A stretch of DNA of 64,000 nt from Alphaproteobacteria bacterium (GTDB lineage Bacteria; Pseudomonadota; Alphaproteobacteria; MPNO01; UBA830), in the NCBI GenBank assembly GCA_965243135.1, contig OZ251539.1:448001-512000 (forward strand), given 5' to 3'. The notes beneath the pieces are model-generated. The model saw only the letters and a program-made list of their open reading frames with translations. It did no database searches and was not told where the DNA came from. Below are positions 1-38,066 of the stretch, piece by piece. The position numbers were made by a program, and so were the translations under genes. How positions within the stretch are numbered: position 1 is the stretch's first letter; each line of letters begins with the position of its first letter.

Positions 1-1048
1 AGTTGAAGATCGGGTCTCACTTTCCGGATGTGGGCGACCTCTTCCGCGATCTGCGCTTTCAGCGTTACCTTGCCGGCTTCCGGCATAAAAATACAATGTT
101 TCCAAGCGATTGCCGTCCGCGTCATGGAAACTGACCGTCCCGCAAGACGCTTCGCGCCAGCATGCTTCTTCGCGCCCGTTGGGGCGAAGCGCAACCCCAT
201 CGAGCGAGACAGCGAAAGAAACCGCCTCCGTCGGCACCGGTTTCGCCTTCCGGATTTCGTCCATGGCCGCCTCGCCTTTCTCCTTCCAGAGATCGCCCGC
301 CGTAACCAAAAGACGTTGCAGATGGCTCGTCGACGGGTTCATGCCCCCCAGTTTTTCGAAGAGTTTGACCGCGTCTCTCGGCGTACAGTGGTCCATGATC
401 AGGAGAGCGCGGTAAGCGGCTGGAACCGTGAGATAACCGTCGACCAGCCCCAGGCTTTCATCGACCGGCGAGATGGACGAACTTCCCGAATGCAACCGCG
501 AGCGGGAGAACGTGACAGGACCGAACAATGTGTGGATGGTCTTTTGCGTCGGTGCAGCCCGGTAGAAAACCTGACCCTCCCGGCGAACCGGGCCTTCCTC
601 CACGTCCCGCGCTTCAATGTAATCGCCTACGGCCGCCCGGCAGATCGCGTAGGTATGCTGGAACAACTCGGTTTCGAAACCGGCGAACGCCTCGGAACCC
701 TGATCTTGTCGTTCCACCCACTCCTGGATGAAGGCTGCGGCTGACTGGAATGCCTCGGCAGTCGCCGCGGGGAGCTTCGAGAAATCGATGGACAAACCGG
801 CCGAAGGCTGTAATGCTGGCATGGGAATGCTCCTGATGTTGTGGTTTGATGCCAACATTTTACCGCATCTTGCGGCTTGGAGCATTCCTTTTTTCGCGCC
901 CCCCCCCCCCGCCATCGTGACAAAATCCGCGCCCGGTTGTCACGAAATCGCTGATTTTGGCCTTGAAGCGCTATCGCGCAAACTTTGTTAATCCTTAAAA
1001 ATCAACACCTTATAGATTTTTCAATTTGGCAATATCAGATTTGCACCC
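1..1048 (-). mobile_element. ISKra4-like insertion sequence, copy A (frameshifted; runs off the left window edge)
   Basis: Terminal IR GGGTGCAAATCTGATATTGCCAAA ends at 1048. Transposase fragments (SLDGV, WREASCGTVSF) lie in several frames. Near base-identical to the reverse complement of 28866-29881. Confidence 0.85.
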
Positions 1049-1249
1049 GCCGGAAGCGGCGGGGAAGCGCCGCAGACAGGGCGTGCCGGTCGCGACGGCG
1101 ACTGCGAGGTCGAGAGCGAGGAAAGATTTGCCGCATTTCGGCTCTCCGATGCCGACCGCCTGTTCGCTCCACAGCTGTTCGACGAGCCAGCGCCGCTCCT
1201 GCGGTTGTTCGGCGAGCTCCGCGGGCCGACGGGTGGGGAAAGCATTCAT
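1049..1249 (-). pseudogene. N-terminal fragment of a RecA-like AAA_25 ATPase, cut by IS copy A
   Basis: RRWLVEQLWSEQAVGIGEPKCGKSFLALDLAVAVATG (Walker A); ends at the IS terminus. Confidence 0.65.
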
Positions 1250-2008
1250 GATCGCGCTCCCCTGCGTTTGTCGGGCGTGAAGATCTCGAAGAACAGTTTC
1301 TCGTCGAGTTCGGTGATCTCGCGCTCGGCGGCAGCGGCGAGCAGACTGTCGGCCATCCTGGTGAGGGAGCGGTAGTTGCCGGCGGCATGATCGCAAAGGG
1401 CGTCCTTGAGGCTCTGCGTCATGAGATTCGGGTTGCCGGCTTGCTCGAGGAGGTGGTTGAGGCAGGCGGCGAGTTCTTTTCGTTCGGCGTTGGCCAGGCG
1501 TTGGGCGGGACTCCAAGGGCTGCAACTCGTCGCGCTGCAGCTTGTCGGTAAGGCGCGCATCGCCCGCCAGCACGATGCTGAGAATGGATCGGGAGTCGAA
1601 CTCGGTGGCGGCAAGCAGGCGCAGTTCGCCGAGCACTGCGGGCTGAAGTTCCTGCGCTTCGCAGCAGGACGGGACGCGCCGCTTCGAGGTGGTCCTGCCA
1701 ACGCCCGCGCAGCGCCTTGAAGCCGCCCCTTATGGGGGCGCAACGGCGCCTCGAACAGTTCGCCCGCGATAGAAGTCGGCGAGATTGGACGCGTCAGGGC
1801 GGCAACCACCGTGGTTGCGCGTCAGCCGGTTTGCAAGCAGCCGCAGAACCACGCTCTTGCCTGCGCCTGGTTCGCCGACGGCGAAGCCGCCGTCGCGGCG
1901 CTCTTCGACCCGCCAACAGAAGCTTTCGACCCGTGACGTGACGAACAGTGCCTCGACCGGCAGGCGAGAATGGGTTCCATTTGAGGCCGTGAAGGGAAAG
2001 CAGTCTAC
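1246..2008 (-). pseudogene. ExeA/GspA-like AAA ATPase of a transposon, frameshifted
   Basis: Fragments GEPGAGKSVVLRLL, ELRLLAATEFDSRSILSIVLAG and CDHAAGNYRSL in different frames. Confidence 0.7.
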
Positions 2009-3362
2009 GTTTCCATGTCCTCGTTGCTTGGAAGGAAGGCAGGGGGCAGGCCGGTCGCGGCCGCGTCGTCCAGGATCTGTTTCAGCAGCGGCGCCCCTGC
2101 CGCTGGCGTGGGATCCGTGTCGACCGGCCGCACATGCCGGCGTTCGCCGTCGGCATTGGCGTTCTTGTCGAGCGGGTAGAGCGCGCACAGCCAGGTTCTG
2201 TGCCTGGGATCGACGAGGTCGATCGTCGACAGGTCCCAAGATGCGAGGTGAAGATCCCGCATGTGGCGGTACTGCGACGGCACCTCGCACGCCTTCAAGC
2301 GATAGCGAGCCGTCGCCGCGCCGCTGTCGGCGTATCGCTCCGGTGCGGAACGCGCGCCGCAGCGCCGGGAGGACATTCGCGACCAACGTGGGGGCTTTCA
2401 AGGAAACGGGTTGTCGGCGTGGCGCCGAGTTCCCGGTGGACACGGTTGTTGTAGTCTTTCTGAACCCACGCTTGGGTTGCATCGTTGAGCTGCGCCAGAG
2501 AAAGCGAGTCGACGCCTTGCAGCATCGCCAGCAGGCGACCCTCGATAATCGACCAAAATCGTTCGGCTTTGCCGTTCTGGTTCGGAGAATAAGGCAACGT
2601 GGTGGCATGCAGGATGCCGAGCTCGTGCAGCCCGTCCCGCACCTCGCCTGCGGTCTCCGCCTTGCCGTTGTCGGTCGCCCGCGGCAAGCCGTGTTTCATC
2701 AGTGCCTGCGACAGGCCGTGCACGAAGTTCTGCGCGGTTTCCCCGAGATACCACTGGAGATGACAGGCGAGGCGGGAGTGGAGGACGGCCAGCAGCAACG
2801 GCGTCCGCCATTGCCCTCGCTTGTCAAGCACGCGGAGCGAGCCGTGATGGAAGTCCGCATGCCACAGGCCGTGGGTATGTTTCGTAACTGCGTATCTCGC
2901 ATTGTTCGCGCCGCGCCGCCGCCGCTGCTTCTCCTGCCCGCCTCGGCCGCCGCTTGCGCTGTAGCCCGTGCGCCCGCATGTAACGCGCCAAGGTGGCGTA
3001 AGACGGCAGCGGGCCAAGCGACGGGTCGTTCTCCACCAGTGCATTGAGGTTGTCGTAATGCAGTTGCGCCGACCAGTCGGGATGTTGTTGCGCCTGCAAC
3101 GCTAGCGGCGCGAACAGCGTGCGCGATCGCCCGGCACCGTACCCGGCGGCGGAGAGCGCCGACCGGGCGGCCCGTCGCGCCTGCCAGCGTTCAATCGTCA
3201 CGAAGGAAAACCGCGTCGGTGCGCCGGTCACGCCGCCACTCCTGTCGCGCCAGCCGCTCGACCTCGACGCGCAGTCCCCCGTGCGGCGGCGGCGCCGCCA
3301 GCAAAGGGCCAACGACGGCAAAGCGCAGCCGCGCCCACCGACCTTCGTCTTGTTGCTTCACT
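2005..3362 (-). pseudogene. rve-type DDE transposase/integrase, heavily frameshifted
   Basis: LWHADFHHGS, TDNG, PYSPNQNGKAERFW, YNNRVHRELG and LCALYPLDKNANA spread over several frames. Confidence 0.8.
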
Positions 3363-3395
3363 TCTGTCCGCTCCCGTTTGGTGAGGACGCGGACC

Positions 3396-3957
3396 CTAAA
3401 TTCCCCTCCTCAATCGCAGAAGACGGCAAGTTCTGCGGGCGCGCCATCGCCAAACTTGCTCGTCAACGGCGACAGCCGCTGCAGAAGAGCCATCTGTGAA
3501 TATCTCGACCAGCGATAGCGGAAGTATCTTCGGCGGTTCCGGAAGACGAGCACGCAGCTTGCGCCACAGGGAGGTCTCGACAAAGACCTCGCGCCACCAG
3601 CGCCGCCACCGCTGAAGCGTGCGTTTGTCGATGCACAGACGATCAACGACCGACCGGAACTCGGGACTTCGCTTCCCCTGCGACATGGCTGTCAGGAACA
3701 TGAAGACGAAAGCTACGTACACCCGCCGCGTACCGCACCGAGGGCGGCGTGACGCGCCGACGGCACCCCGCGCAACAGAAACTCAGACGCCGCGCTCCAG
3801 CGATGAGCGGTCGCTCAACGCCGCGAGGCTTTCGCGGACGCGGCATGCAGATTGCCGCCGCAGTGCGGGCAGGTACGGGCCGCCAGGTCCTCGTCTATGC
3901 GTTCGAGAAAAGCCCAGGTTGTGGAGTCGACGGGAAAATCGTGGGACAATGGTCATG
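3396..3957 (-). pseudogene. Zn-ribbon/HTH accessory ORF of the rve-ExeA element, frameshifted
   Basis: RLSFCCAGCRRRVTPPSVR followed by IDKRTLQRWRRWWRE, directly upstream of the transposase. Confidence 0.5.
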
Positions 3958-4338: not shown

Positions 4339-5679
4339 ATGATCGCGAACACAGAAGCTCCCAAAAAAGCAAACGCAGCGCCGACGAAGGAATTCTTCGT
4401 CCGAATGATAACCAAGGACATCTCCTTGGAAGACTGCATTCTCGATCTGGTGGACAACTGCCTGGATGGAGCGAGGCGCGCCCATCGGGCTAGAGACGGC
4501 AATGACAACACCGAAAAACCATATGACGGATATTACGCTAAACTGACATTCGATGGCGATGGATTCACGATCAAGGACAATTGCGGCGGAATCAGTATGG
4601 AAAACGCCATCGATTATGCGTTCCGGTTCGGCAAACGTCCGGGTGGACCCGCAGACTTGGAGGCTTCTATTGGTCTCTACGGAATAGGTATGAAGCGTGC
4701 CGTGCTCAAGATCGGGAAGAGTATCGAGGTCCGGAGTTCTACGGAAGTGGAGGCGTTCTTGTGCACTATATCCGTGGATGAATGGCTAGAGCATGACGAT
4801 TGGGAATTCGACATGGATAACGCGAAAGTTTCTGAAATCTCCGGGACTACGATACGAATCCAAGATCTGTGCCACGGCATCGAAAACGAATTCAGCGATG
4901 CCACTTTCACGAACCGTCTTACCGCTATTACGTCGCGAGATTACGCGCTTTTCATTGAGAAAGGATTTAAGATCACAATAAATGGAAAGAACGTTCGGGC
5001 ACACAAGTATACTGTGAGGCGGAGCAACGATTTCGTACCTCTTCGCAAGATCTATAACGATGGAGACGTTCGAGTAGAGATTTTTGCGGGTATGGTCGCA
5101 CTCCCCAATGATGATCGCAAGCCTTTCGACAGAACGGCAACGACAACCCACGGATGGTACGTTCTATGTAATGACCGCGTAGTGCTTGCGGCGGACAAAA
5201 CGGAACGTACGATATGGGGCGTCGCGGGCTGTCGAAGATGGCATCAGCAATATCACGGTTTTGTGGGGATGGTGCTTTTTTACGCTGACGATCCGAGTCT
5301 GCTGCCTTGGACCACGACGAAACGCGGAGTAGACCTCGGCTCGCCTTTATATCGCAGAGCAGTATTGGAAATGAGAAAAGCGACCGAGCCGTGGATTAGG
5401 TACACGGGCAGTCGCAAAAATAATCTTGAAATGGCAAAGGAACTGGAGCGCGGTGCGGGGCCAATTAGTATACTCGAAATACCTACAAATGCAAGGTTTG
5501 GCGTCCCGGAAATTCAGACTGATGATAAAAATCCCATGGTAAAAATTCGCTATGAAAAAACCCGAGATCAAGTGAAGAAGGCGGCAGAAGCCCTCGGTAA
5601 TACGCAATTACCGAACAAGAAAATCGGAGAGAAAACCTTCGAGTATTTTCTGGAAAACGAGACTGATTGGGAGCAATAA
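4339..5679 (+). CDS. GHKL (MORC/MutL-like, HATPase_c_3) ATPase
   Basis: DCILDLVDNCLDG (N box), DNCGGI, SIGLYGIGMKRA, GTTI, then an S5-like region GWYVLCNDRVV...LPWTTTKRG. GGAGG RBS upstream; AT-richer than flanks. Confidence 0.85.
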   Translation: MIANTEAPKKANAAPTKEFFVRMITKDISLEDCILDLVDNCLDGARRAHRARDGNDNTEKPYDGYYAKLTFDGDGFTIKDNCGGISMENAIDYAFRFGKRPGGPADLEASIGLYGIGMKRAVLKIGKSIEVRSSTEVEAFLCTISVDEWLEHDDWEFDMDNAKVSEISGTTIRIQDLCHGIENEFSDATFTNRLTAITSRDYALFIEKGFKITINGKNVRAHKYTVRRSNDFVPLRKIYNDGDVRVEIFAGMVALPNDDRKPFDRTATTTHGWYVLCNDRVVLAADKTERTIWGVAGCRRWHQQYHGFVGMVLFYADDPSLLPWTTTKRGVDLGSPLYRRAVLEMRKATEPWIRYTGSRKNNLEMAKELERGAGPISILEIPTNARFGVPEIQTDDKNPMVKIRYEKTRDQVKKAAEALGNTQLPNKKIGEKTFEYFLENETDWEQ

Positions 5680-5680
5680 T

Positions 5681-6640
5681 GTGTCGTCCTCCGAGCGAAT
5701 AAATTACGCAATCAGGCCCAACAAGGCGATAGAGCGAAAGCTGATGTTCGAAACCCTTGCTGGTCTCATGCCGATTTGCCCATTTAAAGAATATCGGTAT
5801 ATCGGGTTTGGTTCATTGTGGTTTGTCGATTTCATTCTTGCACATAAAACCCTGTCCATAGACGACATGATTTCCATTGAAAGTAACCCCGATATAGCAG
5901 GCCGCGCAGATTTCAACAAACCGTATCGTTGCATTAGTGTACGAGAAGGAGAATGCAACGGTGTGTTACATGAGTTATATGAAATCGATCACGAAGAAAA
6001 GCGTAATTTGGCTTGGTTGGATTACGACGGTAGTCTCAGCGAAAGTATATTGGATGACTTGGAAATTTTATGTAGAATGTCGATGAGCGGCAGTGTTTTA
6101 ATTGTAACACTTAACGCCAATAAAAATAACCTGCCAAAAATAGATGATGACGGGCAACAGATTCACGGCTTGCAGGGTCGGTTGCTAGCTGCCGTTGGGA
6201 AGTTTAAGAATTTAGTCCCGACCGGCACGAATTTCAAGATTGAACCGTATCGGAAATTTTTGGCGTCTTTGTTGTTGGATCATATGGAGAGTTTGATAAG
6301 ATTCACCGGACAAAAATGTCTACCCTTGTTCAATATTTCATATGCCGACGGTGCGCCCATGGTGACGGTCGGGGTTATCATTGCCGATGAGAAGCTGTTT
6401 GAAGCCGTTCAGTCGAAGTTGAATCAACCAAGCCCCTTGGGTCCAATGGACAGAAATACCCAGGTCTCGATTGGCGTTCCAATGTTGACTTGGAAGGAAA
6501 AAATGGAGTTGGATAAAATGATGCCTAGTTCGCACGAAATCCCAGCCGCGGATTTGAGGTTTCCTATAGATGAAGATAAGATTGAGGACTACCGGCGTTT
6601 CTATAAACATTTTCCAATTTACGGCGAGATCACGATATAG
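5681..6640 (+). CDS. Putative SAM-dependent methyltransferase-like protein
   Basis: Rossmann-like YIGFGSLWFVDF...MISIE...AWLDYDG. Starts 1 bp after the ATPase stop. Substrate unknown. Confidence 0.6.
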   Translation: MSSSERINYAIRPNKAIERKLMFETLAGLMPICPFKEYRYIGFGSLWFVDFILAHKTLSIDDMISIESNPDIAGRADFNKPYRCISVREGECNGVLHELYEIDHEEKRNLAWLDYDGSLSESILDDLEILCRMSMSGSVLIVTLNANKNNLPKIDDDGQQIHGLQGRLLAAVGKFKNLVPTGTNFKIEPYRKFLASLLLDHMESLIRFTGQKCLPLFNISYADGAPMVTVGVIIADEKLFEAVQSKLNQPSPLGPMDRNTQVSIGVPMLTWKEKMELDKMMPSSHEIPAADLRFPIDEDKIEDYRRFYKHFPIYGEITI

Positions 6641-7265
6641 CAGCGGCCGGGCGAGGGCGCAGGGTCGATGAATCAACTTACCGATATGTGTTGGCGATGT
6701 CGTGACGTGCGTTCACATTTTCGCATCATAATCGCTGCTGGTTGTTATCAGTCTTTCTCTGTCGATTGTCGTTGGTTCGGAAAACATTCGGTGAGTGATT
6801 TTCAGGGAATTCTCGAGTCCGTGGGTCGGGGATAATGGACGCCTTGACGCCTTTGCCGACCCTACCGATTCATTCGGGAGGTTTCGGCGGCACGCTAGGT
6901 GGTCACAGGCAGGGCTGGTGCCCGTCGCCCCAACCTGGTCGGCTCCTCACAGCCATTGAGCGAGGCGACCCCGATCTCGCCACCATATTGGCATTCCCGG
7001 ACGGTCGCAGCTCGCCAGCGGGCGTCAGGAAGCGCGCGGCGGTCCCTCTGATCGCGCATCCCGTTGGCGTAAAGCTTGATCTTCCAGAAATCTGTCCGGG
7101 TCGCCAGCGTAGTCTCGCGTACCGGTCCGTGGGATGGCGGTGCAAGAAACAGCCATGAACGAAGCCGACCGCACGATGGAAAACCGGGCGTGCCGGAAGC
7201 CGCCTGTCATGAAGACGGTACCGAAATCCGCGTGCGTGCGGCTTTTGGCGCAGGATCATCTCGGG

Positions 7266-7327
7266 ACGGGTGTCCTTGCCGCGAACGGCCGCGCATGATG
7301 GCCGCCGTTCGCGGCAAGGACACCCGT
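7266..7327. repeat. Perfect 24-bp inverted repeat with 14-nt loop (REP/MITE-like hairpin)
   Basis: ACGGGTGTCCTTGCCGCGAACGGC (7266-7289) and its exact reverse complement (7304-7327). Confidence 0.9.
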
Positions 7328-7834
7328 GTCTGCGATTGCTGATCGCCGCTACGGATTTCTCGCGACGAATTTCGTGGGATATATGGTCGTGGTCAACCTT
7401 GTCGCCATCGTCGGCCTCTTTTTCGGCTCCGGAAGGCTTTTCCGATTGTCGCGGGCTGCGCGGGGGAAACACGCTGCAACGCCGAACTGTCCGTCGAGAA
7501 AGATCCATCGGCATATGGGATCCTCCTGCTCCGAGCCCTTCTGCAGAAATTTGACGGCAATTTTCCATCAGGGTATTATGACTTCCTGAGCTACACTGGA
7601 ACTTGGCGGACCGAGGTTCTTATCGGGTAACTGTGCCGATGACTTGGACTGTGGATGGAATGAAATTCTAATGCGGGAGCGGAGAACGCCTTCTTCCCGA
7701 ACTCAGCTTGCGGCTTGTAACTTAGTTATGCTATGCTTGAAGCGATGGATCGCCGCAACTCCACCACCTCGGATATCTCGGCGCTTTTACAGGATTCATC
7801 AAGACGAGCTTCGAGAAACAAGAGGAATCCTGTA

Positions 7835-8665
7835 ATGCCGGAAATATCCAAAGATAGAGCTGTAGAACTCATTAGGCACCAGCTCGATGAGATCCCGGAA
7901 GTAAAGGCTATCGCTCTGACCCGCGAAGCCTTACCTCCGCCTCTCGGAATGGTGACGGCGATTTTTGGAATAGGTAGTAAATTTTATAAATGGCACAGAA
8001 GTACGCTAGTTTGTATTTCCAAAATTTTTGGAGAACGTTCTGAACATTACAAAGAATTGTTGTCAATAAAGTTCCTTCCAGAGTCTTCAAGTTCCAGCCA
8101 AGAACAAAAAAGAGAGGCGCTCGATGTCGGTTTGAATCAAACCGCGGGGATCCTTGAGTCGATGATTGAAGAAATACAGAATTATTGGGACAAGGAACAA
8201 CCTTCCGTCGTTCGGATCAAAAACAGTTCTCAATCGAAGCAAATTTTCGTTGTTCATGGAAGGGATGAAGGCATAAAAGAGACCGCGTCGAGATTTTTAC
8301 GACAACTGAACCTCGAACCGATTATATTGGACGAGCAGGCTAGTCGCGGCGCAACAATCATAGAAAAATTTGAGCGACACACGAATGTCGGATTTGCCTT
8401 AGTGTTATTAACTCCCGATGATGAAGGCTCCCTTCGGGGAGAAGACATTAATCCTCGAGCTCGACAAAATGTCATTTTTGAACTGGGCTTTTTCCTAGGT
8501 TGTCTCGGAAGGGGGCGTGTCATCGTCTTGAAACGGGGTGAAATTGAAATTCCGTCGGACTACACGGGAGTTCTATATATCGAATTGGATGATAACAATG
8601 AATGGAAAATGGCTCTCATCAGGGAACTGAAAAGTGCAGGATGTGAGGTGGAGGAGAGCGGATAA
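7835..8665 (+). CDS. TIR-like nucleotide-binding domain protein (CAP12/Pycsar-effector-type TIR) with helical N-terminus
   Basis: IFVVHGRD, IIEKFE, FALVLLTPDD, RARQNVIFELGFF, EIPSDY. ATG 7835 is preceded by GAGGA. Confidence 0.85.
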   Translation: MPEISKDRAVELIRHQLDEIPEVKAIALTREALPPPLGMVTAIFGIGSKFYKWHRSTLVCISKIFGERSEHYKELLSIKFLPESSSSSQEQKREALDVGLNQTAGILESMIEEIQNYWDKEQPSVVRIKNSSQSKQIFVVHGRDEGIKETASRFLRQLNLEPIILDEQASRGATIIEKFERHTNVGFALVLLTPDDEGSLRGEDINPRARQNVIFELGFFLGCLGRGRVIVLKRGEIEIPSDYTGVLYIELDDNNEWKMALIRELKSAGCEVEESG

Positions 8666-12520: not shown

Positions 12521-12552
12521 ACCCAGTTATGTTGAATTCAACATAACTGGGT
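12521..12552. repeat. Perfect 32-bp palindrome
   Basis: ACCCAGTTATGTTGAA|TTCAACATAACTGGGT, no spacer. Confidence 0.9.
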
Positions 12553-18267: not shown

Positions 18268-18291
18268 AGATATCTGCTCTTTGCCGACATA

Positions 18292-19915: not shown

Positions 19916-20619
19916 CCGCTCAGCGTCCTGCCGGTGTAGAAGAGCGTGCGTGCGCCCCGGTTTGGACGCAGGCATTTCTGGAAGACAAAAGGCGATTGCG
20001 CAGCGCGGCTGCAGACAGGTCGAAGACTTTCGCGACCATCGAGCGGACTGACAGCCAACCCCGGCAGCCTCGGCGCGGACGAAACGTTTTCCCGGCTCCG
20101 CTGGTTCGGCGCGTCCGGCGCGCCGGGACGGAACCGTCCATAGATTTTTTCTTGAAAATCTGTACTAAGATTCTTATTTTCCGTTTATGTTTAGAAAATG
20201 CGGCTCTTGGGGCGCGTGCGGTACCCGTTCGACCGCCGTGCTGTCGAAGCACGGCGAATTCTTTCTTCTAGTAAAAGCCCTTTATTAACATGATCTTAGA
20301 TACCAGATCCGGTCTACCTGCTTGGCCGGAGAAGACCGCATGTTGGTCGGAGAAGACCACATGCTTGTCTTTCTGGCGAAAGAATTCCATCAAATCATGT
20401 GGTTACCCAAAGGCTTGAACTTCCTGGCGCTGATTCGCCGACGCCTCCAGCGAAGTCCGCGACTGGTTCTGGATTACTTGCGGATGACTGAAAACGCCCG
20501 TAAAGGCACCCCAGCAGGCAACTACAGAATTAGAACAAATTAGCCGTGCTGTCGAAGGAAGACCGATTGACGATTCGGAGGCTACGCAATTGAAATACAA
20601 TTGGGGAGGGGAATCTGCG

Positions 20620-21694: not shown

Positions 21695-24169
21695 TCAGGG
21701 AACTGTTCGGTCAGGTTCTCGACGGAAACATGGATTCGAGCGCTTGCCGCAGCGCACGGTGTCCGTTCTTGGGCGAAATCTGCGACGGCGGGGGAAACCG
21801 CGATATGGCTCGCGTAGCTGCGTCGGATCCGGGACTGGGCCCCTTTTTCGACTACGAGGTCGGCCGCAGGACGCAGGGCCATCTTCCGTGCGGCATCTGC
21901 TCGGTCGAAACCCCGAAGAAAAAAGAGACATGGGCGATTTGCTCCAGGCGACTGTTCGCCTTTTCCTCGAACGGCGTCGCGGACCGACATCGCGAGCTGG
22001 CCGACCGGGTGTTCGCGCTCTGCGGTTTTCTCCCCGGACAGGAAGTATCCGTGTGGTCTGAAATATCCCTCAAGGAGGAGGGGGAGAAAGGCGTGTTCGA
22101 CTATCGCCTCGACTATGTGCTGCGGGCCGCGGAACCCGGATCCGTTCCCGTCGTCGTCGAGACTTGCTCGACGTCTGGAGGGAACAGGGAAAAGGGGACC
22201 GATATCCAGAGCGCCTTTCGCAGGGCGGTTCTGTTCGCGCATTCGGCCGCCGGGGGTCAGGTCAGGGCGCCCGGGGTCAATGTGCGGCAGGTCTGGGCGA
22301 GAATGGCGTCGCAACTGGTCGCGAAAGCGGCGAACAGCTGGGGCGGGCGCGCAATCGTTCAGGATCTTCTGGCGGGTGTGGATCTCATATGGCTAAAATT
22401 GCATAAAGTGCAACATTATCAAGCTGCAAGGACTGTTATTTCCTGATTGTCATTTGCGGCAGGAACTCCGACCATAGCTTGCCATGCTAAACGGCCGGAT
22501 CTTATCAATGCTCTGAAAGTGAGGACGTTCTGACCTCATACTCCAACGCATGCCGGCCCGCTTCATGCGCTGGTTGACCAGAACCTTGTTGGCAGCCTCG
22601 ACAACGCCTGACCGCGTAGCCTTTAGCGTTCAAGCTTGCGTAGCGCGCGCTTGTGCTTCCGGAAAAACTTGAGCTCGCGTTCGAGATCCTTGAGCGCCGC
22701 CGTTGTCGTCGCCTTGTCGCGAAGATGGCGGATCGCCGACCTTGTCGATGCCGTTGGCGTCGTCACGCAGGACAGCGCGGTACTTGTCGTACCAGTCGGT
22801 CGCGACGGTCGGCAACGTCGCTGAGATGTTCGCACGCATGAAAGAAATCAACCACCTGCTCGTCGGGTCGAAGTTTCTCGAGAAACGTCCAGTTGTCGGC
22901 TGCGGCAACGGCAACGAAGGTCGGGCCGCACTTTCGTGCTCGACTTCTTCGGTGATCTGCGCCTTCAGCGTCGTCTTGCCAGCTTCCGGCCGAAATACAG
23001 TGTTTCCAAGCGATCGCCGTCCGCGTCATGGAAACTTACCGCAGGACGCTTCGCGCCAGCACGCTTCTTCGTGCTCGTCGGGACGAAGCGCAACCCCGTC
23101 GAGCGAGACAGCGAAGGAAACCGCACGGCACCGGTTTCGCCTCGCGGATTTCGTCCAAGGCCGCTTCGCCCTTCTCCTTCCAGAGATCGCCCGCCGTCAC
23201 CAGAAGACGTCGCAGGTGGCTCGACGACGGGTTCATGCCCCCCAGCTTTCCGAAGAGTTTGGCCGCGTCTCTCGGCGTGCAGTGGTCCATGATCAGGAGG
23301 GCGCGGTAAGCGGCGGGAACCGTGAGGTAACCGTCGACCAGACCCAGGCTTTCGTCGACGGGCATGAGTTTCGGGTGCGGTACCGAGAACGGCAATACGT
23401 GACCGGACCGAACAACGTGGTTTTTGGCGTCGGCGCAGCCCGGTAGAAGACCTGACCCTCCCGGTGAATCGGACCTTCTTCGTCGTCCCGCGCTTCAATC
23501 GCCTACGGCCGCACGACAGATCGTGAAGGCATGCTCCCTCAGCCTCGAAACCGGCGAACGCCTCGGAACCCTGTTCCTGTCGTTCGATTCCTTTGCAGAT
23601 GAAGGCTGCGGCTGACCGAAGTGCCTCGGCAGTCGTCGCGGGGAGGTCCGAGAAGGACAAACCGGTCGAAGGCTGTGATGCTGACATGGGAATGATGTTG
23701 TGTATTGCTGCCAACATTCTGCCGCATCTTGCGGCTCGGAGCATTCCTTTTTTTGCTCTCCAGCTCCCCTATCGCGACAAAATCCGCCCCTGGAACGACG
23801 TTTTGTCACGAAATCGCTGATTTCGGCCTCGAAGCGCCGCGACACGGACTCGGATAATCATTGAAAATCAACGTCCTATGTAATCTTCGATTTAGCCATA
23901 TCAGATTTGCACCCCTTCTGGCCGACTACACCCATACGGCCCTGCCGCTTGACGATCTGCGCTCGCCGGACTGGACGCCCGGCGAAGTGAACATGGTCGT
24001 TTCCGACCTGAGCGGGCCGGTCGCCCTGTACTCCGGGCCCATAAGGGCGGCGGGCGGAGACAGGAAATGCTGGTTCGAGTTGCTGGGCGCCCCTCACGTT
24101 CCGACGCTGGAATCCATAACGAGGAAGCTGGACGAGATTCCTTCTGTCGCCACGTTTCGGGTGCACTGA
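21685..24169 (+). pseudogene. NotI-like restriction endonuclease, split by ISKra4 copy C
   Basis: Cys cluster RCPF...CDGGG...CGICSV...WAICSRRL, DYVL, STSGG, VWARMASQL. The frame resumes at 23915 (LLADY...). Confidence 0.7.
22374..23914 (-). mobile_element. ISKra4-like IS, copy C (decayed)
   Basis: IRs GGGTGTGGATCTCATATGGCTAAA / TTTAGCCATATCAGATTTGCACCC. 8-bp TSD CTTCTGGC (22366-22373, 23915-23922). Confidence 0.9.
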
Positions 24170-24444
24170 AGCGAATTCCCGTTCGACGGCGCGGCTTGCG
24201 GTCGTCGGGCTTTCCTGAGAGGTCGGTTTCGCGCTTCGCGTTTGTCGGCGCGCGCATGCTCGTCTTTCGCGTTCGGAATCGTCCGCAACCATGCGGGCCC
24301 GAACGGAAGCCGCGGCGCTGAAGTTCGCCGTGCGGATCCCGGCACCACCGTTCATTCCGCGTGGAAGCGCGCGTAGCGCGTCCCGGCGACTCCGCGAACG
24401 CCGCCCGCGCAACCGGAAACCGGGCCGAGGCGGCGTTCGCCCCG

Positions 24445-25440
24445 TTACGGCAGGAATACCGGCAGTTTCCCGGCGGCGCGCCGCATCGCTTCTTCGCCGC
24501 GCCGGTCGTAGCGGGCGGTCGTCTGCGGGCTGGCGTGCCCGGCGAGACGCTGGACGATCGCGAGATCGGCGTCGGACTCGAGCAGGTCGCTGACGAACGT
24601 CCGGCGCAGGTCGTGCGGACTGCAGGGCGCGACGCCGGCCTGTTCGCATCGGCGCTTCAGCCAGATCATGGCCGTCTGCGCCGTGACCGCGCGGATAGCC
24701 AGGCGTCCGGCCTTGTCGATCGGGCAGAGCAGCGGTCCGGGACCGCGGCCGCGGACGGCGATCCATGCGTCGACGGCGCGCCCGGCGTCGCCGGCCGCGA
24801 ATGCGGTGCGCTGCCGGTTCCCCTTGCCGATCACGCGAAGCGCTCCGGTGCTCCGGTCGTAGTCGCCGATCCGAAGGGCGACCGCTTCGGCGCGGCGCAG
24901 CCCGGCACCGTAGAGCAGGGCGAACGCCGCCCCGTCGCGGAATCCGGCCGGCGTCGGATCCGCGGCGCAGGCCGCGAACAGCCGCCTGATCTCGCCCGGC
25001 TCGAGCGCCCGGCCCGCCGGCGGCCTGCTTCCCTTCACGCGGGGGACGTCGACGGCCCGCATGTAGTCCTCCGTTCCGATCTGGCCCAGGCGCCAGCTCG
25101 CCTTCAGGACGCCTCGAAGGGCCGCGAGGTACTTGTTGGCCGTCGCGGGAGCCATTTCCTCGGCGACGGCCGACCTGACGGCCGCGACGTGCTGGAAGCG
25201 GAAGTTCTGCCAGGGAACGTGGGCCGCGCCGGGAAAGCCGGCGAGCGCGGCGAGCCGGTCCAGCGTGCTGCGCATGCCGTCGCGGGCGGGACCTTCCGCG
25301 AGGCCGGCGAGGTAGACGGCGGCCGGGTTTTCGTCCGCCTTGGCGGGCGGAATGCCGGGAACGGCGGGAAAACGGCTGGCGGCGGTTTGCCGAACGGGAG
25401 GAGGGTGCATCGGCGGTTTCCGGAGGCGGTCGATTTCCAT
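24445..25440 (-). CDS. Tyrosine recombinase/integrase (XerC/D-like), intact
   Basis: LLYGAGLRRAE (R), GKGNRQR (K), PHDLRRTF (HxxR), LAGHASPQTTARY (H, Y). Confidence 0.92.
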   Translation of the reverse strand: MEIDRLRKPPMHPPPVRQTAASRFPAVPGIPPAKADENPAAVYLAGLAEGPARDGMRSTLDRLAALAGFPGAAHVPWQNFRFQHVAAVRSAVAEEMAPATANKYLAALRGVLKASWRLGQIGTEDYMRAVDVPRVKGSRPPAGRALEPGEIRRLFAACAADPTPAGFRDGAAFALLYGAGLRRAEAVALRIGDYDRSTGALRVIGKGNRQRTAFAAGDAGRAVDAWIAVRGRGPGPLLCPIDKAGRLAIRAVTAQTAMIWLKRRCEQAGVAPCSPHDLRRTFVSDLLESDADLAIVQRLAGHASPQTTARYDRRGEEAMRRAAGKLPVFLP

Positions 25441-25699
25441 TCAGAATGATAGTTCTGAATACCTATTTTTCACACCCGCCAGATGCTGTGGGCGGCCGCG
25501 CCCGCCGCCACAACAATTCCGACCCGCGGGCTTCCGATGATACCGGGAAAGAGAGAGGTTGCGCTCTGGGCCGACCACGTCGGTCGATAGCTTCGACTGT
25601 TGGCGGTCCGCCCTGACTTCGCGTTCGCTACGTTGGAGGGCCGGTGGTTGCCCCTTTCCGTGACGGTGCGAACCCGACGGGAGATGATCATTCGAATAC

Positions 25700-26300
25700 G
25701 GTGCCGTGCATTCTGTCCGTCTTCGCTGAACGCTTCAAAGGCGGGCAAAGCAGCGCGAAAGCAAGACTGGAAAAGCCGCTTCTCGCTTCATCGTCATGGT
25801 CCGAGCGTCCGGGGGAGCCGGCTACCGAGCGACCGTGCGCTGGATTCCAGGGAAGTGGGACGGCTGTTCGCAGGCCGCGAGAATGACGCCCCTCCCGTGG
25901 GAAAGCGGTTTTTCGCTGCTGTACGGCGTCGGTCCGCGGCAAGGGAAACCGGCGGCGCAGCGTGTTCGCGAGCAACGGCGCGAAACGCGCTATCGATGCA
26001 TGGGACCGCCGCTCTGCCCCGTCGACAAGGCCGGCCGCATCGCCATTCGCCCGGTCACGGCGCAGGCGATGATGATCCGGCTGAAGCGCCGATCAGAGGA
26101 AGCGGGGCTCGCGTCCTGCAGCCCGCGCGATCTCCGCCGCACGTTCGTCAACGACCTGCTCGAAGCGAGCGCCGATATCGCGATCATGCAGCGCCTCTCC
26201 GGTCACGCGAGCCCGCCCGCCACGGCCCGCTAAGATCGCCGGGGAAACGAAGTCATGCGACGGGCGACGACTCGGCTGCGTGTCGACTGGCCGGTTTGTC
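25700..26300 (+). pseudogene. Tyrosine recombinase remnant, divergent from and paralogous to 24445-25440
   Basis: GPPLCPVDKAGRIAIRPVTAQA...CSPRDLRRTFV...SGHASPPATAR*; catalytic Tyr codon is TAA; frameshifts upstream. Confidence 0.8.
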
Positions 26301-26880
26301 CTCTGCACTCCGGCCGAACCGCTGACGCGCCCGTCCTGCTGCAAGATTTGCGAACTTCATTCTTGGTGGGTGGAGATGTCAAACGGTCGGGAACAACCTT
26401 GCGTCCCCGCGCCTTGAACGCTTGGAGAGGCCCGTATCCATATCGTTGGTGTCGATGGGCACTCAGCGGGAAGCTCCAGCCTTCGAGCGCCGGTACAGGG
26501 TTGATGAACGTCGCAGCCCGCTTGCCCTCGCGCTATGCGCCCTCCGCGCCCTTCCAGCTCCGACAAGTCCCGCTCGTTGCAGTACCCGGCAAGCACCATC
26601 GCGGGCTGCGGGGTGGACCTGTCCCTGGCCTCATCGAGCAACCCCACCATCGCGCCCGAGTTGACAGGGAGCATCGTTTTCTACGGCGCAGACGGGGCGG
26701 AGAGCCTTTGCCGCTGTTGGGTCGGATGTCCCCACATGGGTTGCTTTCCTGCGCCTGCCGCTGCGGCAGGATCGGCGGTACCGGTTCGCCGTGCCGGGGA
26801 TCAACCCGTTCGATAGACATCGTCCACGTGTATCGGTAAAGTATGGAACTGAACGAAGAATTGTCGAAGAGGAGAATGAA

Positions 26881-27399
26881 ATGCTATTCGATGTGCATAG
26901 ATTCTTGATCACGAACTTGAAAACTAGCGAATTTTGGAAGGATGTCGATAGAGAAAAACCCGGATTAAGAAAAGCGAGAGGTTGCTATATTTTTTCGACA
27001 AATCACGGCCAAAACTTCAAACCTTGGTATGTCGGAAAAGCGGAAAAATCGGAGTTTGATACCGAAGTTTTTAATAGAAATAACAAGGAAATGTGTCGAG
27101 AAATTTTGAATAAACCGGGAGAAGTTCATCTGTTCTTGTTGCCGAGACTTACTCCCAAGAAGAGAAGATTTGGAAAATCCAAATACTCTCCTCATATACG
27201 ACACCTTGAGTTGCACCTTATTAGTTTGGCTCTAAAACGGAACAAGGATCTCTTTAATGTGCATTACGCAACAAGATTCAGGGAACTGAAAGTTCCGGGT
27301 ATCTTCAACAGCGATCCGGGTCATCCACCGTCGGAGGTCCAAGAGCTCAGGCGCACTCTTGGACTTAGGCCGGCAAAATCGAAGCCGCGGCTTCCCTGA
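26881..27399 (+). CDS. GIY-YIG-like nuclease
   Basis: GCYIF...WYVGKA motif pair, later LELHLI and LFN; AT-rich; GAGGAG upstream. Confidence 0.65.
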   Translation: MLFDVHRFLITNLKTSEFWKDVDREKPGLRKARGCYIFSTNHGQNFKPWYVGKAEKSEFDTEVFNRNNKEMCREILNKPGEVHLFLLPRLTPKKRRFGKSKYSPHIRHLELHLISLALKRNKDLFNVHYATRFRELKVPGIFNSDPGHPPSEVQELRRTLGLRPAKSKPRLP

Positions 27400-28200
27400 T
27401 CCCGTCCCTCCGCCGCCGTAGCATGACACTCAATAGTCGAGCACGGTGGTCGGCGCTTCCGTTTGCGACACAGCACTTTCACGGTGCCTTTACGATAACT
27501 CTACAATAAGTTTGCGGTGTATCGTTGCGAAGCTTGAGCTCGCAGGCGACTATGTCCGCTCCGTATTTTTTCCAGACGTGGTCCTTCCATCCGTTCGTGG
27601 GATCGTGTCGCGGGAAAATTCCCGTCTGCGCCTGCAAGAGTTGCCGTGGTCCGCGTGGAGCGCGAGGCCAACCGCGCCATCCGGTGGGGAGTGTGACCAT
27701 TAACCAGTCCGAATTTCTGACCGCGCTGGCGGACATCAAGCTCGAGGGCCGGTGGGGGTCGGGTTAGGTGGCGGTTGCATCCGTCTGTATCATCCGGGCG
27801 AGTTCGTCGGCAGTGCGATGGAGCTTTGCCCCATCACGGCCGTGGCCTACGACCGGATCGGCGCATACCATGACCCGCTGAATTGGCGCGATGCCGCCGA
27901 CGAAATCGGGTTGGACCATGAAACCGGGAAGGTGATCGCGGAAGCGGCCGACCATGAGGCACCGTGGCCAATCCAACCCGAACGTGCGCGACAAGATCAA
28001 GGCCGCGTGCGGACTGGCGACGTGATGCCTGATTTCGCGCCGCCGGGAACGAGCCTGCTGTTCAGCGACAGCGGCTTGAACCATGTTCCGTTCGAGATCA
28101 ACGGAGACATGGACGCCGAAGACCTGTGCGAACACTTGCAGGGCGTGACCGAGGCGCGGACCAAGTTCCGCGTGAGCTTCAACATCAAGGAGAACGACTG

Positions 28201-28797
28201 ATGACATACTTTCAAGATGCTGACTTTCGCGACATGCGCGAGAACAACAAGGCGCTGGTTCGCAAGGGACTCCAGAAGGCGCGACAGGAAAACCGGACGA
28301 TTTTCCAGTGCATGGATTACCTGACGAACAGCAAAGGCCACGCGATGATATGGACGGCTGCGAACGAGGTCGTTTTCGAGTATGGCGAAGAAACCGTCAT
28401 TGAGATTGTCGAAAAGGAAGGATGGAAGCTGGAAGCTCAGAATCTGATCTTTCGACCGACGACCATGACGAGTCGCGACAAGTTCCTGCAATCCGGGCAA
28501 GACGCGGCGCAAGACGGCGAAGTGATCCTGCTGATGACGTTCCGGGCGTCCGAAAAACTCCAGAACGAGATGCGGCATGAAGCCGCAACGGCGGCGCATG
28601 AGGAGGCTGAGGCTTTTCGGACCGCGCCGACTTTGAAACATCTCAGGAAAGCCGTGGATGATTGCATCGGCAAGATCGGCGCGCCGGGAACCGATTCCTT
28701 GTTGCGCGCCATCGCCGGTACGGGATCTATCGGGGTGATTCCAGAGGACCAATACGGGCGCGTTATCCTTGAGATCAAGAAAAGGATTGGCCAATGA
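28201..28797 (+). CDS. Hypothetical protein in a phage-like gene string
   Basis: AAGGAG RBS; ATG overlaps the upstream stop (TGATG). One of several small coupled ORFs at ~27690-28865. Confidence 0.6.
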   Translation: MTYFQDADFRDMRENNKALVRKGLQKARQENRTIFQCMDYLTNSKGHAMIWTAANEVVFEYGEETVIEIVEKEGWKLEAQNLIFRPTTMTSRDKFLQSGQDAAQDGEVILLMTFRASEKLQNEMRHEAATAAHEEAEAFRTAPTLKHLRKAVDDCIGKIGAPGTDSLLRAIAGTGSIGVIPEDQYGRVILEIKKRIGQ

Positions 28798-28802
28798 CCG
28801 GC

Positions 28803-30438
28803 ATGACCCGCTTCAACCTGCAAATTCCGGTTCAGTTGCTGGAACGCATCCGGGCGGCGGCGAAGGGGTGCAAATCTGATATTGCCAAATTGAAAAATCT
28901 ATAAGGTGTTGATTTTTAAGGATTAACAAAGTTTGCGCGATAGCGCTTCAAGGCCAAAATCAGCGATTTCGTGACAACCGGGCGCGGATTTTGTCACGAT
29001 GGCGGGGGGGGGGGGGGGCGAAAAAAGGAATGCTCCAAGCCGCAAGATGCGGTAAAATGTTGGCACCACAACATCATTCCCATGCCAGCATTACAGCCTT
29101 CGGCCGGTTTGTCCTTCTCGAAGCTCCCCGCGGCGACTGCCGAGGCATTCCAGTCAGCCGCAGCCTTCGAGTGGGTGGAACGACAAGATCAGGGTTCCGA
29201 GGCGTTCGCCGGTTTCGAAACCGAGTTGTTCCAGCATACCTACGCGATCTGCCGGGCGGCCGTAGGCGATTACATTGAAGCGCGGGACGTGGAGGAAGGC
29301 CCGGTTCGCCGGGAGGGTCAGGTTTTCTACCGGGCTGCACCGACGCAAAAGACCATCCACACATTGTTCGGTCCTGTCACGTTCTCCCGCTCGCGGTTGC
29401 ATTCGGGAAGTTCGTCCGCCGGTCGATGAAAGCCTGGGGCTGGTCGACGGTTATCTCACGGTTCCAGCCGCTTACCGCGCTCTCCATGGACCACTGTACG
29501 CCGAGAGACGCGGTCAAACTCTTCGAAAAACTGGGGGGCATGAACCCGTCGACGAGCCATCTGCAACGTCTTTTGGTTACGGCGGGCGATCTCTGGAAGG
29601 AGAAAGGCGAGGCGGCCATGGACGAAATCCGGAAGGCGAAACCGGTGCCGACGGAGGCGGTTTCTTTCGCTGTCTCGCTCGATGGGGTTGCGCTTCGCCC
29701 CAACGGGCGCGAAGAAGCATGCTGGCGCGAAGCGTCTTGCGGGACGGTCAGTTTCCATGACGCGGACGGCAATCGCTTGGAAACATTGTATTTTTATGCC
29801 GGAAGCCGGCAAGGTAACGCTGAAAGCGCAGATCGCGGAAGAGGTCGCCCACATCCGGAAAGTGAGACCCGATCTTCAACTCGTCGCCGACGCCGCAGCC
29901 GACAACTGGACGTTTCTTGAGAGGCTTCAGCCCGACGAGCGGGCGTTTCTTCCATGCATGCGAACATCTCAGCGACGTCGCCGACCGTCGCAACCGATTG
30001 GTACGACAAGTACCGTGCCATCCTGCGCGACGATGCCAACGGTAGGTCATTCGGGCGATCCGCCATCTTCGCGACAAGGCGACGACTGCGACGGCACTCA
30101 AGGATCTCGAACGCGAACTCAGGTTTTTCCAGAAGCACAGGCGCCGCATGCGTTACGCGGCCCTGAATGCCATGGGTTACACGATCGGGTCGGGTGTTGT
30201 CGAAGCCGCCAACAAGGTGCTGGTCAACCAGCGCATGAAACGGGCGCGTTGGAGCATGCGGTCAGAACGTCCTCACCTTCAGGGCATTGATAAAGTCAGA
30301 CCGATTCGGCATGGCAAGCAATGGTCGGAGCAAGCATCGCGAACGACGATCAGGAGGCCATCGCAGCCTGACAATGGAAAACTTGACTTTGGCAATATGA
30401 GATTCACACCCCGGCGAAGGCCGAAGGCTTGAAGCCTA
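28803..30438 (+). pseudogene. Arc/ribbon-helix-helix-like DNA-binding protein, interrupted by IS copy B and truncated
   Basis: MTRFNLQIPVQLLERIRAAAK, continuing AEGLKP after the TSD. Confidence 0.55.
28866..30411 (+). mobile_element. ISKra4-like IS, copy B (both ends present, transposase frameshifted)
   Basis: IRs GGGTGCAAATCTGATATTGCCAAA / TTTGGCAATATGAGATTCACACCC. 8-bp TSD CGGCGAAG (28858-28865, 30412-30419). IGSGVVEAANK motif. Confidence 0.92.
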
Positions 30439-30512
30439 AAGCCCGAGCAGCAACAGGCAGATCGCCGCGGCCGAGCCGCCCGCCAGAAACAGCCGCCTGT
30501 TGTCGTTCCGCT

Positions 30513-32485
30513 GTAAGCGTTCGCTCGTCAAGTGACGTTTTTTGAGGAGTTGCCTCCGGTCCCGGGTTCGGCCTGACTTTCTTGACCGGGAGGGTGCCCG
30601 AGTACGGCGGCGGCGTTGCACCACGTCTGGCGCGCGAACCGGCAGCAGGTTTTAGCGCGGCATCTCGCGGAGCGGCCTGTCCAGCCTGACAAACGCTCAT
30701 GGCCTGCTCGCCCCGTAGCATGCAACTGGTGGTTTTGCTGGCGTCGTGCCGCTCGCCGACATAACCGTTCCGCGTTCGGGCGGCGCGGCGTGAAGACAGG
30801 GCTATACGGGGCAGCCCTCGGCGTCACGCTCCTCTCGAACGGTGAGCGCCGCCGCGAAAAAATCTCGTGGAACGGTTTCGTGCGGCCGGCAGGTAGTTAC
30901 ACAACAAAATTTTGGGCTGGAAACTAGTTTTTGATTCTTGTATACGAACGCCATGGCGTTCGAATCTGCAGGCGCGCTTCTCGGAACCGAGCTGTCGGGC
31001 GGCGGTCAGACTCCACCTGCGTCGCTCCGGGACAACGCGGCCCTCCTCCGGGAGAACGCGGCCCTCACCGGGAAGAACGCGGTTCTCATCCGGGAGATTG
31101 GAGAGCGCGACCGGGCGCTGGCCAAGGGAGCGTCGCTAGCGAAGCCGGAAGCTGCGGAGAACGGCGTAGAGAACGTGAAGGCCCGCAACCGCAGGCTCGC
31201 TCGGGATCTGTACGGGCGCAGCAGCGAGCGGCCGCCTGTGGCCTCCGGGCCGGGGGCGGCGCCCGGGAACGCCGTCGCACGGCCGCATGCCGTTCCCGGA
31301 CCTGCCCGTCCGCGAGGAGGATTCGGTCCCGGACAGGCGCAAGTGCAAGGATTGCGGCAAGGCTTGGGTCTCGAACGGCTACAACGAAACGTACGCCCTC
31401 GAGTACAGGATCGCGTTCGGCATGTTCGACGGCCTGCGCCCGGCCTGCACCTGCGGGCAGGAAAAGGAGGTCCCGGCCCCGGAGCGGGTGTTTCACCCGA
31501 TACGGAGTGTCCGTCTGGGCGTTCGTCCTGGCGGAGAGGTTCGGGCAGCACCGTCCGCTGCGTTCAGTCTGCCGTGCGTTGCGCCAGCACGGGCTTCCGG
31601 TCGCGCCCGGCACGCTGGCAGACGCGCAACGACGCCTGCTGCCGCTGTTCGAACAGCTCGACGAAGAGATCTCCCGGCGTCTGTGGGACGCTCCGGTTGT
31701 CAACGGCGACGAAACGGGGTGGCGCATACGGGAGTTGGGCGAGAAAGACAGCGGCAGCGCCCGCGCCTGGGTGTGGATCGCCCGATCCCACGATGCGATG
31801 CGCACCGTCACCGTCGCGCAGCGCGGAAGCTGCCCGCGAACTGTTCGGGGGCCTCGGCTCGCCCGAACAGGCGGCTTACCTGGTCTGCGACCGACCAGCC
31901 CCTGGTTCCGATCCCCGAACGTCTCGCCGACGTCCAACCCGTCGTTGTCGAACCCTGCCGGAACGCGAGCGAAGGCCGCCTCTGGAACGAGTTCGTCGCT
32001 CGCTACCTCGGCCACTCGACGCTGCCCGGCGCGGCGCTACTTCGCTCGGACCGCCGACGGCGAACCCCTCGCTGTCCTCGGCTTCGGCGCCGCAGCCTGG
32101 AAAATCGCGCCGCGGGACAGGTGCGTGGGATGGAATCCCGAAACCCGCCGCCGCACCGCTGGTGGTCAATAACGCTAGATTCCTGATCTTGCCCTGGCCA
32201 GGAACCTCGCGTCCCATGTCCTCACCCTGGTCGAACGGCGGCTGCCCGACGACTGGGAGCTCCGCTACGCCTTGCGTCCGGTCCTGCTCGAGACCTTCTG
32301 CGAAACGCCGCGCTTCGCAGGAACCTGCTACCGGGCCGCCAGCAAGGTCGGCGCGACCCAAGGTCGCGGCAAGCTCGACACCCGGCGCGAACGCGCTCTC
32401 CCGGTCAAGGATGCTGAAGCCCTTGCGGCGGGACTGGAAGCGGATCCTCAAAAAATAGACCGTCACTTGACGAGCGAACGCTTAC
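30513..32485 (+). mobile_element. IS66-like element with internally deleted transposase and DUF4338 remnant
   Basis: Perfect 25-bp IR GTAAGCGTTCGCTCGTCAAGTGACG. 8-bp TSD GTTCCGCT (30505-30512, 32486-32493). CKDCG Zn finger, VNGDETGWR; RPVLLETFCE...TQGRGKLD. Confidence 0.9.
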
Positions 32486-38063: not shown

Positions 38064-38066
38064 TCC

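Follow-up and report, generated by a model that had tools for sequence, protein, structure and literature searches.

The microdeletions described here affect insertion sequence (IS) copies and other repeated DNA throughout an alphaproteobacterial genome and were first noticed in a 64,000-nucleotide stretch of it (the window; bases 448001-512000 of one 6.10-Mb contig whose GC content is 65%). Several described processes come close to them. Known pseudogene erosion has broad size distributions and uses microhomology. Bacterial non-homologous end joining (NHEJ) by Ku and LigD gives variable sizes and templated additions. Repeat-induced point mutation (RIP) in Neurospora and its relatives depends on duplication and produces C-to-T transitions in the premeiotic eukaryotic nucleus. 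The yeast topoisomerase-I model invokes incision and religation, not end joining, with the enzyme that holds the ends sealing a small gap. According to passages of one paper (PMC5676920), yeast deficient in RNase H2 undergoes such topoisomerase-I-dependent deletions, of 2-5 bp, where ribonucleotides are present in its genome; RNase HII makes its nick exactly 5' of a ribonucleotide, the species most often misinserted being rA, and excision repair incises 4-5 bonds 3' of a lesion. The frequency of rA, together with a nick 5' of the ribonucleotide, would fit a deleted block that starts at A.

We compared the genome with itself, which yielded 5,977 non-redundant repeat alignments, and counted unique events by requiring clean flanks and collapsing identical contexts. 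At 90% identity or more, the pairs contributed 1,242 unique clean gaps, 878 of them 5-7 bp long. These resemble the yeast topoisomerase-I deletions in their short, restricted size, but in yeast the events are found in short tandem repeats and span 2-5 bp, whereas 861 of the 878 are not tandem units. The yeast system also uses topoisomerase I, while here the type IB topoisomerase profile (PF01028), which matched in a Deinococcus control, had no match in the genome, and RNase HII is intact (it, MutS and Pol I are all encoded without internal stops). As in RIP, mobile or duplicated copies quickly gain many context-specific lesions and are inactivated; RIP, however, changes bases, whereas here DNA is deleted, active IS families are unaffected and detection sees repeats alone. 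Pseudogene erosion shares with our case the loss of unselected DNA in IS-rich host-associated bacteria, yet here 878 of 1,242 gaps fall in a window of three lengths, are anchored at AT and show no excess microhomology. NHEJ by Ku and LigD likewise gives small deletions without junction microhomology but lacks a fixed size, and neither Ku (PF02735) nor an ATP-dependent ligase (PF01068) had a match in this genome, whose marker-gene completeness is 98.8%; rejoining of the Ku/LigD type, which the initial annotation had suggested looking for, is therefore unlikely. A literature search at the level of abstracts, with passages of one paper, found no description of such a deletion signature, in line with the novelty claimed at the outset.

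The deletion signature itself is real. The gap-length distribution has its peak at 5 and 6 bp whatever the identity class, and among the 1,242 gaps 205 were of 1 bp, 56 of 2 bp, 35 of 3 bp, 16 of 4 bp, 335 of 5 bp, 470 of 6 bp, 73 of 7 bp, 10 of 8 bp, 11 of 9 bp and 31 of 10-12 bp, so that lengths of 3-4 bp account for just 51. The spectrum is sharper still in pairs at least 97% identical, where the 196 unique events have lengths of 5 bp (81), 6 bp (95), 7 bp (13) or some other value (7). The 878 events are spread over 51 of 62 100-kb bins, at sites whose GC content (65.4%) equals the genome average; the deleted blocks themselves have 52.5% GC against 65.9% in their flanks.

We then analysed the anchor, allowing all equivalent placements and both strands and taking as control the re-placement of each event within 150 bp, repeated 200 times. 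A 5'-AT start was possible in 135 of the 189 events of 5-7 bp from pairs at least 97% identical, compared with a control mean of 17.2 and maximum of 29, an eightfold enrichment; ATC alone accounted for 91 (control mean 6.5, maximum 14). The proposal that breakpoints are enriched at AT thus withstood control for composition and alignment ambiguity. The initial annotation had specified C or G as the third base; in the larger set ATC was enriched 10.4x and ATG just 2.5x, while ATA (7.9x) and ATT (6.0x) were enriched as well, alongside GAT (3.4x) and TTC (2.4x). Starts of G and C only were depleted, and TTC and TA form a minor start class. The base that precedes the block is mostly C or G, and the 3' edge prefers C-R|R, that is, a block ending in C-purine and followed by a purine. 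A logistic model of 30 flanking positions separated deleted from undeleted AT sites with a cross-validated area under the curve (AUC) of 0.77. A sequence code exists, but it is loose. The AT start could be read on both strands in just 13 of the 135 AT-type events.

Microhomology was not in excess over local controls: placement was without ambiguity (shift 0) in 111 of 189 events against 101 expected, the whole distribution followed the controls, and tandem-unit events numbered just 17 of 878. Several other routes were tried and rejected. Excision of hairpin loops or quasi-palindromes is not indicated, as the flanks are not complementary and stems of at least 3 bp were counted in 3 of 440 events where 9.3 were expected. 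Coupling to the coding strand was likewise dismissed, both from a codon-usage model (34 coding versus 23 on the other strand, for the 57 confidently framed events among the 135) and from ten elements oriented by Pfam or by open reading frame (ORF), with 21 sense versus 17 antisense; the apparent start at Ile codons arises because AT dinucleotides in GC-rich genes lie mostly at codon positions 1-2. Nor was there a replication-strand bias: leading and lagging strands carried 133 and 160 single-copy junctions, respectively, with origin and terminus set by GC skew alone. NucS/EndoMS gave nothing but weak partial matches in long unrelated frames. A transposase target-site footprint was rejected because the abundant families make 9-bp duplications and the IS of copy A (below) makes 8-bp ones, and none examined makes 5-7 bp. 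DruA/DUF4338 (Mom-like) modules as agent fared no better: 77 are found in this genome and 34 in its sister species, but genomes G048, G036 and G056 carry 15, 9 and 7 without the length spike, in what is a small sample. A search for the Mom family proper gave one sub-threshold match.

The process is most readily followed in one IS family of the window, whose copies, named A to D, are given below with the element that adjoins D.

1-1052, minus strand: IS copy A, the final 1,052 bp of an element 1,600 bp long whose start lies 548 bp ahead of the window, with its transposase on the minus strand.
398-402, 470-474, 724-729, 784-789, about 829-835 and 845-850, minus strand: six segments present in A and absent from B (A/B alignment).
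14124-15674, minus strand: IS copy D, about 73% identical to A, with about 15 gaps of 4-7 bp.
15675-17318, strand not stated: IS4-like element of 1,644 bp that directly adjoins D and has a 9-bp target duplication.
22374-23914, minus strand: IS copy C, about 79% identical to A, with about 19 gaps of 5-7 bp when compared with relatives that are less eroded.
28866-30412, plus strand: IS copy B, inverted relative to A and identical to a copy at genome 417603-419170.

Copy A is flanked by an 8-bp target duplication, GCCGGAAG. When A 1-1100 was aligned with the reverse complement of B 28800-29900, the two were identical over A 1-1048 outside a C-tract, without a single substitution, as the initial annotation had reported. 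The six blocks it listed as missing from B are all where it placed them: GATCA/ATCAG at 398-402, GAGAT (ATCTC) at 470-474, CTGGAT (ATCCAG) at 724-729, ATCGAT at 784-789, CTCCTG/AGGAGC at about 829-835 and TTGAT (ATCAA) at 845-850; on the transposase strand the retained segments read TGATC/CTGAT, ATCTC, ATCCAG, ATCGAT, CAGGAG and ATCAA. In B they appear as two 5-bp gaps, two 6-bp gaps and one stretch of 11 columns that combines a 6-bp with a 5-bp deletion. The 6-bp deletion at A 829-835 removes from B a Shine-Dalgarno-like AGGAG box seven bases upstream of the transposase ATG. A itself lacks four segments in its window part, at about 87, 197, 495 and 937. Over six near-identical copies, A and B included, the sole differences are 15 deletions of 5-9 bp and the length of the C-tract. 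All 15 are present in B, with junctions at about 28977 (9 bp), 29066, 29077, 29115, 29169, 29398, 29418, 29486, 29883, 29946, 29987, 30044 (7 bp), 30246, 30258 and 30302, and the copy at 417603 shows the same 15 states; two other copies have exactly one in common, and the six deletions of A are all found in B too.

Two side observations concern these IS copies. The poly-C tract upstream of the transposase start (about 895-910 in A, about 29005-29025 in B) has anywhere from 12 to 18 C in copies that are otherwise identical, which may reflect real phase variation or homopolymer error. Elsewhere, inverted IS copies at genome 5407674-5409306 and 5424277-5425909 carry exchanged 8-bp target duplications, GTTCTGGA and GGCGTCGC, which indicates that the intervening 15 kb was inverted by recombination between the copies.

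The diverged copies bear on whether the same positions were hit more than once. Every comparison with C and D drawn in the initial annotation was reproduced: C shares two of the deletions of B, ATCGAT at about 23655 and the TGCTCC/CTCCTG box at about 23693; CCGAT (ATCGG) is absent from C (about 22613) and D (about 14326) and present in B, as is CGAAT (ATTCG), absent at about 22738 and 14456; and B lacks TTGTCGA/ATCGACA at about 30044, a block that C and D retain. Several gaps of C lie at the same alignment columns as gaps in A, B, D or other subfamilies. The alignment covered seven IS superfamily members (A, B, C, D, copy c5409 and two others), at 73-82% identity to A. CTTCG is absent from A, B, C and copy e3386; TGCAT from A, B, C, D and e3386; and ATCGAT from B, C, D and copy e5958, with further losses shared by {C,D}, {C,e3386} and {C,e5958}. 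The splits {C,e3386}, {C,e5958}, {C,D} and {A,B,C,e3386} are mutually incompatible, so no single tree explains them. Furthermore, c5409, which differs from A by zero substitutions, retains CTTCG, TGCAT and CGCGAT, all missing in A; copies 20-27% diverged lack these segments too, with identical flanks of just 0-7 nt there. At deletions shared between diverged copies, identical flanks extend for 0-12 nt in 18 of 21 comparisons. Gene conversion would carry neighbouring differences along, and the short identical runs therefore point to independent hits at the same positions, as had been claimed from the first alignment. At one site the losses in three lineages measure 5, 6 and 7 bp and have one border in common, and the ribosome-binding box of the transposase was lost in B, in C and in another subfamily. 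In several families the deletions also far outnumber substitutions: the 1.6-kb IS has 15 deletions for 0-2 substitutions, a 2.3-kb element 8 for none and a 1.7-kb element 8 for 4.

Independent sequence data were available as contigs, not raw reads, from four runs of three studies, which we compared over window 12000-31000. Undeleted blocks corresponding to sites deleted in B (ATCGAT, ATCGCG, CATCT, GTCGCT, ATCGA, ATCGACA and CGATT) are present in the run contigs, as expected from the other copies. The deleted state is present as well. At 29945, depth without the block amounts to 385 of 1,343 in run X7 and 15 of 59 in run X6, equivalent to about two copies in the former (unique depth about 160) and about one in the latter (unique depth about 15). 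Run X1, a 2022 sponge metagenome from another study, contains one 990-nt contig with the deleted state of B at five sites. Where just the undeleted form is present, as at 29114, contig depth is uninformative on absence of the deleted form. Given both forms in contigs of three studies and copy-specific sets of heritable states shared between copies, an artefact of consensus or basecalling, the first alternative that the initial annotation had named, is unlikely, and the deletions are real heritable states. A separate observation comes from window 16956, in a uniform and apparently active IS4-like family, where 5 bases present in the assembly are missing in X1 (all depth) and X7 (about 30% of depth); this variant may be the same kind of deletion segregating in the population.

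We looked for the signature in relatives and found it in part. The sister species G002 shows a weaker form, with 42 unique events of 5-9 bp at 27 loci (8 of 5 bp, 14 of 6 bp and 12 of 7 bp), lengths of 3-4 bp being absent; AT-type events make up 11 of the 42, compared with a control mean of 4.3 and maximum of 10, and microhomology is above expectation (10 of 42 unambiguous against 21.5 expected). Genome G004 offered three clean gaps in all. Four genomes of other genera in the order, with 30 IS loci and 658 substitutions, show no such signature, their gaps being sixteen of 1 bp, two of 2 bp, one of 3 bp, two of 5 bp and one of 26 bp. The spike looks specific to the genus, albeit from a small sample. 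Relatives of the IS family of copy A in other genomes are at most 34% identical, too distant to serve as controls; orthologous native regions within the genus are 67-77% identical, too diverged for a neutral indel spectrum; and a 1,649-bp IS considered below was found in 0 of 77 other genomes of the order.

These results are, in our judgement, reasonably well explained by a heritable, lineage-specific and sequence-anchored process of 5-7 bp microdeletion, for which we favour concerted short-patch excision and resealing. Such a process would take blocks of 5 or 6 bp, and more rarely of 7 bp, out of double-stranded DNA. The block would usually start at 5'-AT followed by C, A or T, with C or G before it, and would tend to end in C-purine ahead of a purine. 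One strand may be nicked immediately 5' of the A, an oligonucleotide of 5-7 nt lost, and the ends, both held by the joining enzyme or complex, sealed again with no fill-in, so that excision would be of a transesterase or repair-patch type rather than NHEJ of a free double-strand break. The products would survive in unselected DNA, namely dead IS copies, defence-island remnants and duplicated segments, and it is plausible, as the initial annotation had it, that the deletions survive solely under relaxed selection.

A number of points weigh against this explanation. The excision-and-reseal step is purely something we infer; to our knowledge, sealing a gap of 5-7 nt without fill-in is not among the activities of known bacterial repair enzymes, and no responsible enzyme was found among the candidate families searched. 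Among the 189 best-supported events 54 (29%) are not AT-type, many of them starting with TTC, and together with the weak code (AUC 0.77) they could mean that more than one process is at work. The rate is also difficult to reconcile. A family of the 1,649-bp IS has 21 full-length copies with 18 substitutions between subfamilies and none of these deletions, and a 29-kb duplication at 76% GC has accumulated 312 substitutions and just 5 such gaps. An uneven rate, young or selected sequences that do not retain deletions, and a preference for mobile DNA fit these observations equally. All events derive from paralog comparison, which places unique neutral DNA outside the reach of the method; the run contigs give no allele fractions and anchor no deletion to a unique flank, and the assembly may itself have been built from X6 and X7.

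One rival explanation is a dedicated genome defence resembling RIP, in which mobile or repeated DNA would be recognised and disabled by AT-anchored microdeletions and the concentration in IS elements would reflect targeting and not simply relaxed selection. The 8-15 deletions per 0-2 substitutions in some IS families, the repeated hits at the same sites, the loss of the ribosome-binding box in B, C and another subfamily, and the few such gaps in the non-IS 29-kb duplication all speak in its favour. Nevertheless, active multi-copy IS families are unaffected, AT-type deletions of 5-6 bp occur in non-IS segmental duplications too, and the event sites are of average GC and widely dispersed over the chromosome. 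No candidate system was found, and substitution divergence in IS elements is a poor clock because it can build up in active master copies. We consider a defence unlikely on this evidence, and the same holds for its specific form, an enzyme system that would excise 5-7 bp at S|AT(H) sites (S, C or G; H, A, C or T) in mobile or new DNA, reseal the ends and act more weakly in the sister species. If true, excision would irreversibly disable transposases step by step and raise GC, making it a prokaryotic counterpart of RIP by microdeletion. Ordinary deletional decay, with recurrence through shared ancestry and gene conversion and a motif that follows from composition, is very improbable. Bacterial pseudogenes generally lose DNA, some sharing here is by descent, as the presence of all six deletions of A in B illustrates, and the G002 events carry additional microhomology. 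Against this stand the near absence of 3-4 bp and of at least 8 bp lengths beside 5-7 bp, the eightfold AT enrichment over local controls, the lack of excess microhomology in the genome under study, and both the short identical flanks and the incompatible splits among diverged copies.

Systematic errors, too, may be sequence-specific and narrow in size, and a polymerase or basecaller that skips about 5-7 nt at a bulky modification, or polishing that leaves mosaics in repeats, could imitate the signature. The genome encodes many putative DNA-modifying modules (the 77 DruA/DUF4338-like matches and several putative methylases), and the possible identity of two runs with the source data of the assembly counts on the same side. 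We nonetheless regard an artefact of sequencing or assembly as improbable. Copies can differ in state although they are identical for over 100 bp on both sides, so that local sequence alone is not the cause; two pairs of copies have exactly the same sets of states, and states are largely nested; old diverged copies have more deletions. Contigs built from k-mers in three studies contain both forms at depths near whole copy numbers, with X1 deleted at its five sites, while the spike is absent from other near-complete assemblies of the order (1-20 contigs) and the conserved genes checked are without stops. About equally doubtful is a staggered double-strand break in which a nuclease or transposase would cut the strands 5-7 bp apart, with the kind of 5' overhangs that integrases, Cas12-type enzymes or certain restriction enzymes leave, followed by their trimming and blunt ligation. 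A spacing of 5-7 bp is that of the major-groove cuts made by many DDE enzymes, the genome is rich in transposases, and both block edges have base preferences, the 5' edge of each strand following a C. Yet fill-in of a free staggered break would yield tandem duplications of 5-7 bp, and their near absence (the 17 tandem-unit events among 878) argues against it. In addition, TnpB, like Ku and the ATP-dependent ligase, was not found in the genome, the abundant IS families make target duplications of 8-9 bp, and the motif is asymmetric, as the few AT starts readable on both strands indicate.

Erosion of the same kind extends through the first 33 kb of the window, a patchwork of lower-GC DNA that contains the IS copies, two genes for C-5 cytosine methylases, one for a TIR effector and an ATPase/methyltransferase pair. 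Over window 1-33000, segments absent relative to paralogs elsewhere numbered 43 of 5 bp, 55 of 6 bp and 13 of 7 bp, versus 5 of 3 bp and 1 of 4 bp; AT at the start or end was possible in 72 of the 111 segments of 5-7 bp, some of which are alternative placements of one event. The stretches concerned, beyond the IS copies, are as follows.

1149-3837, no strand assigned: eroded repeat stretch lacking, by comparison with paralogs at other genomic sites, 13 segments of 5-6 bp, of which 5 are AT-type.
13369-14139, no strand assigned: eroded repeat stretch upstream of D where comparison with paralogs reveals several deletions of 5-7 bp, among them CTCGAT, ATGAT, ATCGCG and CGCGAT.
19744-22161, no strand assigned: stretch with a C-5 cytosine methylase gene (ORF 20590-22446) in which 5-6 bp segments are missing relative to a paralog.
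30702-32413, no strand assigned: eroded repeat stretch after B, with about 20 placements of 5-7 bp listed, some alternative for one event.

The deletion sites in the methylase stretch are 19744, 19804, 20761, 21337, 21657 and 22161, five of the six being of AT or GAT type. The NotI-like remnant, in which the initial annotation had read missing Ile-initiated dipeptides, gave one weak match in a homologue search, and the query was probably an antisense ORF.

Other features of the window are recorded for context. A seemingly intact defence-type set at 4339-8665 comprises a GHKL-type ATPase (HATPase_c_3), a Methyltransf_35 protein (full-length match) and a CAP12/Pycsar-type TIR effector. The genome-wide DruA/DUF4338 matches include three in the window, at 13806-14009, 17343-17555 and 32068-32382; many lie inside IS elements, among them a 2.8-kb IS family with at least 6 copies pairing at 100% identity. 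For another genus of the order, 7-15 matches were counted in some genomes. The public runs that bear this region are labelled as sponge metagenome or as two coded organisms, and the bacterium is therefore sponge-associated. Ankyrin-repeat proteins are typical of sponge symbionts, and one of 678 aa is encoded at 32933-34969 on the minus strand by a DNA array of 99-bp units, with 14 copies reported. From 35198 to 64000 and on to genome 512109 runs the 28.9-kb stretch of about 76% GC whose second copy lies at genome 5533877-5562740; 312 substitutions and 38 gaps, only 5 of them of the microdeletion type, separate the two copies (98.6% identity), which encode very long reading frames such as 35707-40158 (minus strand).

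We rate the signature as a new kind of mutational process, with a residual risk of artefact. If real, it means that some bacterial lineages have a dominant, enzyme-like deletion process of defined size and anchor, and models of pseudogene decay, IS inactivation and GC enrichment would change. Frameshifts in such genomes would not be random sequencing noise, which calls for caution among annotators. The hot-spot sequences that were lost repeatedly would provide a concrete assay, and the process would imply that an NHEJ-free cell has a DNA-processing activity, potentially of interest as a tool to make small, programmed deletions.

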